Positions 23,522 through 32,818 are shown, counted from the stretch's first letter. The stretch is 64,000 bases of DNA from Candidatus Omnitrophota bacterium (GCA_041652815.1 JBAZGN010000001.1:381855-445854), one strand, 5' to 3'. Numbers and translations are program-made. The notes: generated by a model not told the origin, from the sequence alone.

Positions 23522-26464
23522 GTGTTAATGGAGCGTATGCCTAAATATCAAAACGCCCAGACTTGGTTAAAAGGGTTCCCACCAGCCACGATAATTGTTA
23601 TCTGTTTAATGCTTTTTCCATTTTTGGCCTTTGCCGCAAATTCAAAACCAGCAATAGGCACAATTACGCCTTCCAGCGGCTCGTCCACAACTGACCAGCA
23701 AACCTATTTTACAACAACCTTTACTGACGCAGACGGCTGGCAGAATATACAATTCGTTTACTTTATTATTAATACTTCAACTTCCGGTTCAAAGTGCTTC
23801 TACGGCTATTACAATCAGAACACAAATAAGCTTTATCTGCGTAATGATGCAAACAATACCTGGTTCGGAGGATTTGCACCGGGCTCAAGTAATATAATCG
23901 AAAATTCCTACGTAAAATTAAACTGCGCAAATACTACGATAACTGGTTCAGGCACAACTCTAAGCGTAAAATGGGCAGTAGCCTTTAAGCCAATATTCTA
24001 CGGCTCAAAAAAAACTTACCTATATGTAAAGGATGATGCAAATGCCTATAAGTCCTGGACACAGAAAGGAACCTGGATATCTAACCGGCCGCCTGTAATT
24101 GGTACAATCACACCTGCAAGCGGCTCAACCAGCCCTAATCAGCAAGTTATGTTCACAACGACATTTTCCGACCCTGACGGCTATAAAAATATCCAATACG
24201 GCCTTTTTCTTATAAATACCTCTGCAAGTCAGGTTAATTGCCTTTATGCTTACTACAACCAAAATACAAATAAGTTCTATCTTGCAAATGATACGGGTTC
24301 ATCATGGCTTGGAGGTTTTACTCCTAAATCAACCAACGTAATTGAAAATTCCTATGTAAAATTAGACTGCTCAAAAAGCACAGTTTCCGGCTCAGGCACA
24401 ACCCTGACCGTTAAATGGGCAGTGACCTTTAAGTCTACATTTGGCGGAGCCAAGAATACCTACCTTTATGTAAAAGACGATTATGATGCTTATGTTAACT
24501 GGGCACAAAAAGGGACATATACTATAAATGTTCCTGATACAACCGCGCCCACGGGAACAATTAAAATAAATAATGAAGCGCAATATGTGAATTCAACTGC
24601 AGTTACTCTAACTCTTTCAGCTTCCGATAATACTGGCGGAAGTGGGCTCTCTCAAATGCAATTTTCAAACGATAATTCCACCTGGCCGGCTGCTGAAAAC
24701 TATGCCGCTACAAAAAGCTGGACTCTCGCCACAGGCGACGGACAAAAAACAGTTTATGTTAAATATAAAGACAATGCAGGTAATTGGTCGCAAAGCTACT
24801 CTGATACAATTATCCTTGATACGACAGTGCCCACTATCTCTGTAGCTTCCGTTGCCACACCTACAAATCAGGATGTAACTCTTAGCCTTGCCGTAAACGA
24901 TAACTTAACTCCTGCTGCAGAGATACAAGTATCCGGCAATAATTCTCCTTATACAACCGAAGGTATTCATAACGTTACCATAACCGCAACCGATAAAGCA
25001 GGTAACTCAGCAACTAAAGATTTAAGCTTTACTATTGATAAAACACCACCGAATATAATAATTACCTCACCTCAAGATGGAGTGGTAGTAGAAGATACAC
25101 AAATTACGTTAACAGGTACAATTGACGGCGCGTCTTTTTCCGACAGCGTCACCCTTGCCCAGGAAGGAGAAAATACAATAACTAAAACTACAACTGATGC
25201 CGCAGGTAATGTTGCTGCAGCCTCAATAAAAGTAAACCTCTATAGAGGAACGCTTATAACTCCCGCAGGAGGAGAAGTCGTATCGCCTGATGGAAAAGTA
25301 AAGTTGACTATTCCAGAAGAAGCTTTAACCGAGAATGCTTACATCAAAATACTCAACGTAAACAAAGATACATTAGAATTTCAAACGCCCCAAAGTGATA
25401 CTCTTTTAAGCGTAGTTGAATGCAAGCCTTACGGCCTCGTTTTCCAAAAACCCGTAACTATAACTTACACCCTTAGTCAGGCAGAAATACCAGGAACTTC
25501 TGTTGAGCTTGGCTTTTATGATTATATCCAGGATAAAATTATTCCCACCGGACAAATCTCAACCGTTGCAACTGACAGTTACTCTATACATTTTTCCATA
25601 ATGCATTTTTCAACCTACGCTGCTTTAAAAAGTATGATATCATCCGGTGCGCCTATTGGGGCAGGCGTAAAAATCCCTCTACCTGATATGTTTACCGGTT
25701 CCTTCGGCCATTCCATACCTCTTACAGTTAGTCCTGGCAGAAAAGGAATGCAGCCAAGCCTCGCCCTTAACTACCGCTCATCAAACTCTAATTCCTGGCT
25801 AGGTATTGGTTTTAGCCTAAACCCGGGTTACATTGTGCGTTCAACCCGTCTTGGCCCGCCAAGCTATGATGACATTAAAGATACCTTCTATTTTGTAACC
25901 GATGCAGGAACAACTGAACTGGTTCACTTAACCGATAACCTCTATCAGGCAAAAATAGAAAGTAGCTTTGCAAAATTTTTCAAAGAAACAGATGATTCCT
26001 GGAAAATAATCGGAAAAGACGGAAGCATTATAAGGTTAGGACAAACTACAAATTCTAAAGAAATTTCGCAATCCGGCACCTATTCTTGGTTCATTACAAA
26101 AGCCATAGATACCAATAAAAACTATATTGAATATACCTATATAAAAGACCAAGGCAAATGCTACCTTAATCGTGTTGATTATACCGGAAATGATGCGGGC
26201 TTTTCACCCACAAATTCAGTAGAATTTTTCCTTGAAAGCCGCGAGGACATACCTTCAAGCTACATCTCAACGTCCAAAATCTCAACTGCCAAACGTTTAA
26301 AGGAAATACAAGTTAAAGTAAATTCGGAACTTGTGTGGAAATATATTTTGGAATACGAATATAGCGCAGACACAAATCGCTCGTTGCTTAAATCGATTGT
26401 TCAGCAGGGAGCGGATGGAAAAGAGTTACCGCAGCAGAATTTAAAATATCAGAGCTCAAAATGA
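23522..26464 (+). CDS. secreted multidomain protein: two ~170-aa N-terminal repeats, Ig-like domains, C-terminal SpvB/TcB-N-like domain
   Basis: Signal peptide. Internal duplication (KPAIGTITPSSGS... and RPPVIGTITPASGS...). The C-terminal FTGSFGHSIPLTVSPGRKGMQPSLALNYRSSN...GIGFSL matches the SpvB N-terminal domain of Tc-toxin B subunits. Confidence 0.7.
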   Translation: MLMERMPKYQNAQTWLKGFPPATIIVICLMLFPFLAFAANSKPAIGTITPSSGSSTTDQQTYFTTTFTDADGWQNIQFVYFIINTSTSGSKCFYGYYNQNTNKLYLRNDANNTWFGGFAPGSSNIIENSYVKLNCANTTITGSGTTLSVKWAVAFKPIFYGSKKTYLYVKDDANAYKSWTQKGTWISNRPPVIGTITPASGSTSPNQQVMFTTTFSDPDGYKNIQYGLFLINTSASQVNCLYAYYNQNTNKFYLANDTGSSWLGGFTPKSTNVIENSYVKLDCSKSTVSGSGTTLTVKWAVTFKSTFGGAKNTYLYVKDDYDAYVNWAQKGTYTINVPDTTAPTGTIKINNEAQYVNSTAVTLTLSASDNTGGSGLSQMQFSNDNSTWPAAENYAATKSWTLATGDGQKTVYVKYKDNAGNWSQSYSDTIILDTTVPTISVASVATPTNQDVTLSLAVNDNLTPAAEIQVSGNNSPYTTEGIHNVTITATDKAGNSATKDLSFTIDKTPPNIIITSPQDGVVVEDTQITLTGTIDGASFSDSVTLAQEGENTITKTTTDAAGNVAAASIKVNLYRGTLITPAGGEVVSPDGKVKLTIPEEALTENAYIKILNVNKDTLEFQTPQSDTLLSVVECKPYGLVFQKPVTITYTLSQAEIPGTSVELGFYDYIQDKIIPTGQISTVATDSYSIHFSIMHFSTYAALKSMISSGAPIGAGVKIPLPDMFTGSFGHSIPLTVSPGRKGMQPSLALNYRSSNSNSWLGIGFSLNPGYIVRSTRLGPPSYDDIKDTFYFVTDAGTTELVHLTDNLYQAKIESSFAKFFKETDDSWKIIGKDGSIIRLGQTTNSKEISQSGTYSWFITKAIDTNKNYIEYTYIKDQGKCYLNRVDYTGNDAGFSPTNSVEFFLESREDIPSSYISTSKISTAKRLKEIQVKVNSELVWKYILEYEYSADTNRSLLKSIVQQGADGKELPQQNLKYQSSK

Positions 26465-32818: not shown

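Follow-up and report, generated by a model that had tools for sequence, protein, structure and literature searches.

A predicted Rhs toxin system of Omnitrophota is encoded by two genes divided between the SpvB domain and the propeller

Results

Two adjacent reading frames with separate leaders

We analysed a 64,000-nucleotide (nt) stretch from a Candidatus Omnitrophota bacterium (GCA_041652815.1, JBAZGN010000001.1:381855-445854; hereafter the window, with positions counted from its first letter), focusing on two consecutive open reading frames (ORFs) that together hold the parts of a predicted Rhs toxin. ORF1 ends in an SpvB domain, and ORF2 carries an FG-GAP propeller, an RHS/YD shell with its core and a variable C-terminal toxin region. 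The following features define the pair:

23522..26464, + strand: ORF1, 980 amino acids (aa) from a GTG start
25706..26461, + strand: SpvB/TcB-N-terminal domain (ORF1 aa ~729-980, the C-terminus), by Pfam, phmmer and Foldseek
26462..26485, + strand: junction, consisting of TGA 26462-26464 and a 21-nt spacer that includes an in-frame TAA at 26480-26482 (15 nt after the TGA), followed by the ORF2 ATG
26486..32818, + strand: ORF2, 2110 aa, ATG at 26486, in the same frame as ORF1

Direct reading confirmed the original prediction of two same-frame ORFs parted by TGA and TAA, with ORF2 beginning 21 nt after ORF1 and the SpvB domain forming the C-terminus of ORF1 (Pfam SpvB, E 5.6e-20). The further claim that each ORF has its own signal peptide also held, as both leaders are signal-peptide-like by hydropathy and by conservation in homologues; in each, a basic n-region precedes a hydrophobic core and an AxA site (AFA/A in ORF1 and ALA/Y in ORF2, the slash marking the predicted cut). 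A promoter and terminator scan, otherwise uninformative, gave no terminator-like site in the junction. The public annotation of ORF1 (P0001, from a Candidatus Omnitrophica metagenome-assembled genome) starts at ATG 23537 and gives 975 aa of otherwise identical protein; because databases carry this 975-aa form, an exact look-up with the 980-aa GTG-start protein returned no match. Deposited names are generic: 'SpvB/TcaC N-terminal domain-containing protein' for ORF1 and 'toxin TcdB middle/N-terminal domain-containing protein' for ORF2. A second assembly record, GCA_023227945.1 (L022), is 100% identical over 22.9 kb, junction included, and calls both genes intact at 975 and 2110 aa.

The SpvB assignment is shared by sequence and structure searches. 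With phmmer, ORF1 residues 709-881 aligned with residues 19-213 of TcdB1/TcdB2 and also with Salmonella SpvB-N, and the top Foldseek matches in the PDB were YenB (9c4k, 4igl, 5kis; E ~5e-11), together with the isolated Salmonella SpvB N-domain (6p0x; E 4e-10, TM score 0.57 normalised to the target).

The same two genes recur across Omnitrophota

A search with ORF1 yielded more than 100 cluster representatives, nearly all from Omnitrophota, of which 87 hold the whole ZU5-SpvB module. Representatives of this family are 570-1190 aa long and carry ZU5 and SpvB at the C-terminus, and none contains RHS sequence. Their C-terminal ends lie within 0-3 residues of the ORF1 end in 82 of the 87 and run 6-9 residues further in the other five, and invariant family residues extend to four residues from the end of ORF1. 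The reciprocal search, with the first 1100 aa of ORF2, recovered FG-GAP/TcdB-region relatives (P0121-P0135), none with an SpvB domain.

To place these proteins in their genomic context, 17 distinct related loci were gathered from a genome-collection scan and from look-ups of single homologues in both directions (ORF1 and ORF2), leaving out duplicate assemblies, the window's second record (L022) and a fused form (L019). In 15 of the 17 loci an ORF2-like gene, starting with a conserved leader of its own, lies downstream of an ORF1-like gene in the same orientation, and pairs in this order are found in L001, L003, L005, L006, L009-L018, L020 and L021. The consensus LIxLHLxxFGPxRDAxAF recurs at the N-termini of ORF2 homologues in at least 15 loci. 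Distances between the paired genes range from 5 nt to 6 kb, with 0-10 genes between. In the syntenic locus L020 (ORF1 83% identical) the gap is 8 nt and the genes are out of frame, and in the syntenic locus L021 (ORF1 84% identical) two genes lie between them. Among the six closely adjacent pairs (the window, L005, L015, L017, L018 and L020), only that of the window shares a frame, against an expectation of one in three, so that the common frame of ORF1 and ORF2 is, by this count, no more than chance.

Two irregularities were seen in L017. Its ORF2 homologue (9207-15277) is frameshifted near 9908, with aa 4-237 and 239-1854 in different frames and called as two genes, which is either a real pseudogene or an assembly error. 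Downstream, at 18398-19642, lies a second RHS C-terminal fragment (TEN_YD-shell, 414 aa) that resembles an orphan toxin cassette.

Single-chain relatives locate the point of division

As the original prediction correctly stated, known proteins carry the SpvB domain, propeller and RHS shell either on a single polypeptide or divided over TcB and TcC; the split point of the present pair differs from that of TcB and TcC. When the 421-aa ZU5-SpvB module was used as the query of an exhaustive HMMER search, with representatives taken at 50% clustering, two tiers of proteins came back. The best ~40 representatives end with the module (the split form), and the lower tier includes many proteins of 1900-2600 aa in which SpvB occupies residues ~50-320 and the chain goes on (the classical single-chain form). 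Single-ORF relatives of the pair thus exist, and four of them join both parts as follows:

P0307: ORF1 723-977 aligns to residues 53-308, and ORF2 448-1685 to 325-1481
P0309: ORF1 721-977 aligns to 61-318, and ORF2 457-1611 to 341-1459
P0304: ORF1 722-980 aligns to 742-1005, and ORF2 458-1795 to 1038-2361
P0289 (3568 aa, on a 12-kb metagenome contig): ORF1 47-967 aligns to 799-1747, and ORF2 from 432 onward to 1758 onward

P0289 contains, in this order, about seven ORF1-type repeats, an Ig region, ZU5 and SpvB and, ten residues further on, an ORF2-like part, and is 50% identical over both the ZU5-SpvB module and the shell. Only 10-35 residues link the ORF1-like and ORF2-like parts of the single chains, and ORF2 aligns to them from aa ~432-458 onward. 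On these alignments, the split form alone has ORF2 residues 1-447, an addition made up of the leader, a conserved 60-aa segment and Ig/cadherin-like domains. By the same comparison the ORF1 stop falls exactly on the boundary between SpvB and propeller, because the single chains join the last residues of ORF1 to ORF2 residue ~450. We therefore read the pair as an old gene fission of a known single-chain architecture, and the family as the single-chain toxin architecture of Zhang et al. (PMC3482391) cut in two.

The first of the two readings offered by the original prediction was a recent nonsense split, with pseudogenisation or programmed readthrough, for which one would point to the shared frame, the spacing of just 21 nt and the existence of single-chain relatives; readthrough of TGA and TAA would give one protein of 3,097 residues. 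This we judge very improbable, as the stop position is kept across 87 representatives at 46-84% identity, the ORF2 start and leader are conserved, other genes lie between the pair in most loci and, where two genes are adjacent elsewhere (five cases), they do not share a frame. Moreover, ~450 N-terminal residues of ORF2 (leader and Ig) are missing at the corresponding place in single-chain forms, and a readthrough product would require decoding across two distinct stop codons and would carry a signal peptide in its interior. Sequencing or assembly error at the stops has nothing more in its favour than the origin of the sequence in a metagenome-assembled genome, and we regard it as more improbable still: the junction is identical in GCA_023227945.1, within 22.9 kb of identical sequence, and the same gene boundary is seen in dozens of independent metagenomes. 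Since relatives keep both the ORF1 stop position and the independent ORF2 leader, mostly with genes between, we interpret the arrangement as a conserved two-gene architecture in Omnitrophota and not a broken gene; by the refuting condition named in the original prediction itself, the same layout in related genomes, the recent split is refuted.

ORF1 combines Ig-like domains with a putatively self-cleaving ZU5 domain

The structure of ORF1 was modelled with AlphaFold2 from an 86-sequence alignment, with a mean predicted local distance difference test (pLDDT) score of 85. In the 975-aa numbering of this model, a low-confidence helix at residues 10-25 is followed by two repeats (38-183 and 187-330, pLDDT >94), Ig-like (immunoglobulin-like) domains to ~568, ZU5 at 570-700, a disordered linker at 702-721 and an all-beta SpvB domain at 724-975. 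Pfam matches fall at 433-506 (Big_13), 578-648 (ZU5, E 1e-8) and 724-878 (SpvB). Converted to window coordinates, the parts N-terminal of SpvB are:

23537..23635, + strand: signal-peptide-like N-terminus (MPKYQ...LAFA/A), by hydropathy; AFA/A is kept in the family consensus
23648..24526, + strand: two tandem Ig-like beta-sandwich repeats of ~145 aa each (ORF1 aa 43-188 and 192-335)
24551..25240, + strand: further Ig-like domains, Big_13/OmpL47-type (ORF1 aa ~344-573; Big_13 E 4e-10, NCBIfam barrel_OmpL47 E 7e-13, all-beta AlphaFold2 model)
25244..25636, + strand: ZU5 (ORF1 aa ~575-705; Pfam E 1e-8, score 35.8 bits where the cutoff is 21)
25640..25699, + strand: flexible ZU5-SpvB linker (ORF1 aa ~707-726; pLDDT <50 at 702-721 in 975-aa numbering)

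The two tandem repeats of an unrecognised domain noted in the original prediction are present, at ~145 aa each rather than ~170 aa, and are identical at 79 of 147 positions. They have no Pfam match, in agreement with that description, and their predicted fold is an ordinary one. Modelled alone they reach a pLDDT of 96, and Foldseek aligns them with two-domain single-chain variable fragments (scFv) and with Ig/FN3-like viral proteins at ~10% identity; on this model they are generic Ig-like sandwiches and not a new fold. Copy number varies from two in ORF1 to three in 1120-aa family members and about seven in P0289. The whole region N-terminal of ZU5 is variable among family members, in repeat number and in the presence of F5/8-type C, CarboxypepD_reg and assorted Ig types, and such variability fits a putative target-binding role.

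Overlooked in the first reading, the ZU5 domain with its HFS motif probably tells more about ORF1 than any other feature. The motif (H695-F696-S697 in 980-aa numbering; nt 25604-25612) lies just upstream of SpvB, and in the model it sits at the turn joining the last two strands of the ZU5 sandwich, before the final strand. Conservation across the family representatives is nearly complete, with F and S present in all 87 and H in 84 of them. HFS is the self-cleavage site of PIDD and Nup98, with SF/S used in CARD8 and NLRP1 (PMC3210808). Because the motif at this position of ZU5 is the cleavage site of PIDD and Nup98, ORF1 is predicted to cut itself between F696 and S697.

ORF2 holds the propeller, the shell and the core

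Upstream of its toxin end, ORF2 is divided as follows:

26486..26590, + strand: signal-peptide-like N-terminus (MNYFCNKDNLLYKTCVIFLIFLHLFAFGPIRDALA/Y), by hydropathy; conserved in homologues
26591..26785, + strand: conserved ~60-aa segment (ORF2 aa 36-100; YNAQSASYQLSSGALTQGG...SQSYILNAGFIP), kept across the split family and with no counterpart in single-chain relatives
26783..27850, + strand: Ig/cadherin-like domains (ORF2 aa ~100-455; Pfam Big_9 E 7e-18, PKD, He_PIG, Cadherin_4)
27863..29092, + strand: FG-GAP propeller and TcdB_toxin_midN region (ORF2 aa ~460-869; FG-GAP_3, FG-GAP, midN at 719-869 with E 2.9e-21)
29093..31864, + strand: RHS/YD shell (~850 aa of repeats) and Rhs-associated core (ORF2 aa 870-1793; RHS_repeat E 1e-39)

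The core is matched by NCBIfam TIGR03696 (Rhs_assc_core) at aa 1714-1793 (E 2e-24) and contains a DPTG motif at aa 1789-1792 (nt 31850-31861). TcdB_toxin_midC gave no Pfam match in ORF2 at E<=0.01. Sequence matches of ORF2 in the PDB are Rhs effectors, TccC3/YenC2 and teneurin-like proteins, and they cover the shell and core only. The conserved segment at aa 36-100 received no domain assignment and could be a docking element for ORF1.

The toxin end belongs to a swapped cassette

The end of ORF2 and the genes behind it comprise:

31865..32815, + strand: variable C-terminal toxin region, 318 aa, made of a hydrophobic module (aa 1794-1978) and a ~95-aa terminal domain (aa 2016-2110)
32836..33558, + strand: two small ORFs (83 aa, 32836..33087; 117 aa, 33205..33558) in the swapped cassette, candidate immunity proteins

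The hydrophobic module is Gly/Ala/Ser-rich and Gly-zipper-like: the 173 residues from aa 1738, 56 of which belong to the Rhs core, are 42% G+A+S and contain nine GxxxG motifs. It recurs in other RHS C-termini, there before phospholipase-A2-like or DUF6973 ends, and the last 95 aa of ORF2 recur separately behind other RHS cores. This terminal domain matched no Pfam or NCBIfam family. A likeness to the TNT domain was noticed by eye, without a Pfam TNT match, and is not claimed.

Compared with its orthologue in L020, ORF2 is 85% identical to aa ~1804 and unrelated beyond; L020 has a Pfam TNT domain at this place, and L021 and L003 have different ends again. At the DNA level, homology to L020 stops at ~31.9 kb and restarts at ~33.6 kb, with flanks that are 79-85% identical and an unalignable cassette between them. 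Neither small ORF has a Pfam or NCBIfam family match, and the 83-aa ORF shows no similarity to the ORFs after the toxin in L020, L021 and L003. Because homology to L020 breaks and resumes at these two points, the toxin end and the two small ORFs appear to form one swapped cassette, as expected for a toxin and a putative immunity gene. Together with RHS/YD repeats and a core with DPxG, a C-terminus that varies between close relatives gives ORF2 the predicted traits of an Rhs/YD polymorphic toxin.

Neighbouring genes

By Pfam, the neighbours of the pair in the window include S1, TyrRS, Fic, BamE-like, PMT-like, methyltransferase, type II secretion and PolA genes. The type II secretion cluster begins 6.8 kb downstream of the toxin pair, and in L017, too, the toxin locus has a T2SSE gene behind it. 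The cluster is complete:

39578..51894, + strand: type II secretion genes T2SSE, T2SSF, T2SSG, two pseudopilins, T2SSJ, PilM/GspL-like, AAA (ExeA-like) and a secretin with a TonB_2 C-terminus

Directly upstream of ORF1 lies a gene for a 444-aa Fic-domain protein (21814..23148, + strand). The corresponding syntenic place in L020 and L021 is taken by small ORFs, of which some show a prepilin N_methyl motif, and this makes the Fic gene look like an insertion specific to its lineage.

A secreted fibre-like family is encoded at 37180..38292 (+ strand), 4.4 kb downstream of the pair, and sits between the ORF1-like and ORF2-like genes in most related loci. Its members combine a conserved ~110-aa N-terminus (VPHLINYQGRLTD...FRIYDAETAG...MSPRQRI) with interchangeable C-termini (Gly_rich_2, phage tail-collar/Gp10_C-like and others). 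The N-terminus has a weak match to NCBIfam Bdello_MAT_N (Bdellovibrio mosaic adhesive trimer fibres; E 2e-9, below cutoff). Just upstream of the PMT-like glycosyltransferase gene (35393..37114), a 63-codon ORF at 35186..35377 (+ strand) encodes the leader and first ~30 residues of this family, after which the similarity is lost and the frame ends; this ORF is apparently what is left of a truncated fibre-family gene. In other loci the family is found at:

L001 13766-14623
L003 13101-14186
L006 3587-4375
L008 5122-6003
L009 3981-4718
L011 2332-3147
L012 4537-5310
L013, three copies
L014 2852-3478

In six loci the ORF1-like gene has as its immediate downstream neighbour a small gene of the 23S_rRNA_IVP family (four-helix bundle, with a weak match to bAvd), at L001 13416-13799, L006 3198-3563, L007 11307-11786, L009 3610-3984, L012 4087-4470 and L021 12978-13337; the window has none. 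No reverse transcriptase was seen near these genes, although no search was aimed at it, and a link to diversity-generating retroelements is unsupported. Finally, a class I S-adenosylmethionine methyltransferase gene (38357..39085, + strand) has homologues in L001, L009, L012, L014 and L017, sometimes between the toxin genes.

Comparison with known toxin systems

The closest known architecture is that of the 'TcdB/TcaC-type' ZU5-SpvB-propeller-RHS toxins of Zhang et al. 2012 (PMC3482391), who had pointed out that ZU5 goes together with SpvB, propeller and RHS toxins; P0289, P0304 and P0297 are examples found here. Domain content and order agree, running from signal peptide and adhesion repeats through ZU5, SpvB, FG-GAP, TcdB_midN, RHS shell and Rhs core to the variable toxin. 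As in these proteins, ORF1 has an N-terminal leader and ZU5 directly N-terminal of SpvB. The differences are that the present system occupies two genes, cut between SpvB and propeller and often with other genes between, and that ORF2 has acquired a separate signal peptide together with domains of Ig/cadherin-like type (~400 aa).

With the BC cocoon of Tc (ABC) toxins (TcdB2-TccC3 of Photorhabdus, YenB-YenC2 of Yersinia entomophaga; PDB 4o9x, 4igl, 6h6g), the pair shares an SpvB-type region, FG-GAP, TcdB_midN, an RHS shell, the use of two polypeptides, the Rhs core aspartyl protease and a variable C-terminal toxin, whose encapsulation is here predicted. In Tc toxins, however, TcB and TcC are divided within the RHS shell; in the present pair the cut separates SpvB from the propeller, and ORF2 has the propeller, the whole shell, the core and the toxin; further differences are the Sec-type leaders and Ig-like adhesion domains on both parts and the ZU5 before SpvB. 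A TcA-sized gene (about 2,500 aa) is absent from the 64-kb window, in which no other ORF exceeds 830 aa. We rejected a classical ABC toxin on the lack of such a gene in the window and on the different split point.

[quoted passage not shown] In BiTLP the plug is cut from the upstream domains by N-terminal autoproteolysis and stays in the complex (PMC13018210). By comparison, the plug proposed here is SpvB-type and not FN-plug- or PAAR-linked, the propeller is FG-GAP and not NHL, the predicted N-terminal cut is made by ZU5 (HF/S) and the plug is on a separate gene. The teneurin-like chains 9pt5/9ifo match ORF2 only over the C-terminal YD shell and core, and Pfam finds no NHL, FN-plug-type domain or PAAR in ORF1 or ORF2. 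A teneurin-like protein was rejected for having neither NHL nor FN-plug, and a T6SS Rhs effector for the lack of PAAR, the Sec-type leaders and the type II nature of the nearby secretion genes.

Two further groups share parts of ORF1 only. The ZU5/FIIND/GPS-type autoproteolytic domains of PIDD, Nup98, UNC5CL and CARD8/NLRP1 have, like ORF1, an HFS motif near the C-terminal end of the sandwich; ORF1 differs in being bacterial and extracellular, and the part that its predicted cleavage would free or tether is a toxin-shell cap and not a death-fold signalling module. The Salmonella SpvB N-domain (6p0x) shares the fold of ORF1 aa ~729-980 and exists without a covalently joined RHS shell. In Salmonella SpvB this domain is N-terminal and followed by an ADP-ribosyltransferase; in ORF1 it is C-terminal, with ZU5 and the adhesin domains before it, and the partner gene encodes an RHS shell that lacks SpvB.

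The system is built entirely from known parts, and the two-gene split between SpvB and propeller is what sets it apart. No description of such a split in Omnitrophota was found in the literature, in a search whose coverage excluded most subscription journals.

Discussion

We consider it probable, if well short of certain, that the SpvB module of ORF1 caps the ORF2 cocoon in trans. The proposal draws support from the contiguity of both parts in single-chain relatives and from the near-constant co-occurrence of the two genes. It bears on the alternative named in the original prediction, a genuine two-component shell, of which the gene organisation stands and the physical shell is backed indirectly by the same two observations. 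Both proteins would be exported by Sec, and possibly onward by the type II secretion system. ORF1 would cut itself in ZU5 at HF/S, leaving the SpvB module (S697-K980) on a ~20-residue flexible linker and held non-covalently by the strand left in the ZU5 sandwich. The module would then dock on the ORF2 propeller and YD shell, extending or closing the N-terminal opening in trans as the covalent SpvB does in TcB. The aspartyl protease of the Rhs core would cut after DPTG, and the 318-aa toxin would stay encapsulated. At the target, the Ig-like domains of both proteins may bind the cell, and the Gly-zipper module may enter its membrane, there to form a pore or to carry the terminal domain.

Several points weigh against capping in trans. 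The predictions of self-cleavage, export route, encapsulation and toxin activity come from motifs, and the Pfam SpvB match spans only profile positions 3-182 of 287; alignments to single-chain relatives run through the domain end, up to the last ORF1 residues. In L007 the nearest 10 kb hold no ORF2, and in L008 just an N-terminal ORF2 fragment is seen. ORF1 could also be autonomous, since an SpvB-type domain exists alone, the Salmonella N-domain having been solved by itself (6p0x). It is accordingly possible, with a lesser though appreciable likelihood, that ORF1 and ORF2 are functionally linked and physically independent secreted proteins: ORF1 a self-cleaving surface adhesin with an SpvB domain that acts autonomously, as that of Salmonella SpvB presumably does, ORF2 a shell closed by its propeller or its own N-terminal segment, and the genes co-occurring since both serve attack on prey or competitors. 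The stability of the SpvB N-domain as a stand-alone fold would suit such proteins, as would the frequent parting of the pair by unrelated genes, up to 6 kb, the ORF1 without a nearby ORF2 in L007 and the conserved 60-aa segment after the ORF2 signal peptide, which has no assigned role. Set against this are the order and pairing kept in ~15 of 17 loci in both search directions, the contiguity of the parts in single chains, with 10-35 linking residues, and the place of the SpvB region in TcB as part of shell closure (PMC6425310). ORF2, moreover, has no leftover sequence able to replace the SpvB module.

If the SpvB module does cap ORF2 in trans, a more speculative extension, which we think unlikely, is that it acts as a detachable, force-sensitive lid. 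ORF1 would bind prey by its Ig-like repeats, and pulling or dissociation would uncap ORF2 and free the Gly-zipper toxin at the target; after ZU5 autoproteolysis the lid would be held non-covalently, like the GAIN/GPS domains of adhesion receptors. If true, predatory or epibiotic Omnitrophota would have a way of opening an Rhs cocoon that does not depend on TcA.

As a natural, phylum-wide variant, this system bears on how Rhs/YD cocoons open and deliver cargo without TcA or a T6SS spike, and the proposed placement of cap and body on separate proteins makes them expressible apart and tractable for studies of assembly, closure and release. There is also a consequence for annotation: neighbours that share a frame in this way may be marked as split pseudogenes by automated pipelines, although for the present pair both public records have the two genes intact. 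Omnitrophota are thought to be predatory (bioRxiv 10.1101/2023.11.21.568195), and the pair adds a toxin-delivery candidate to their predatory or epibiotic toolkit, beside the type II secretion operon and the fibre-like adhesin genes.

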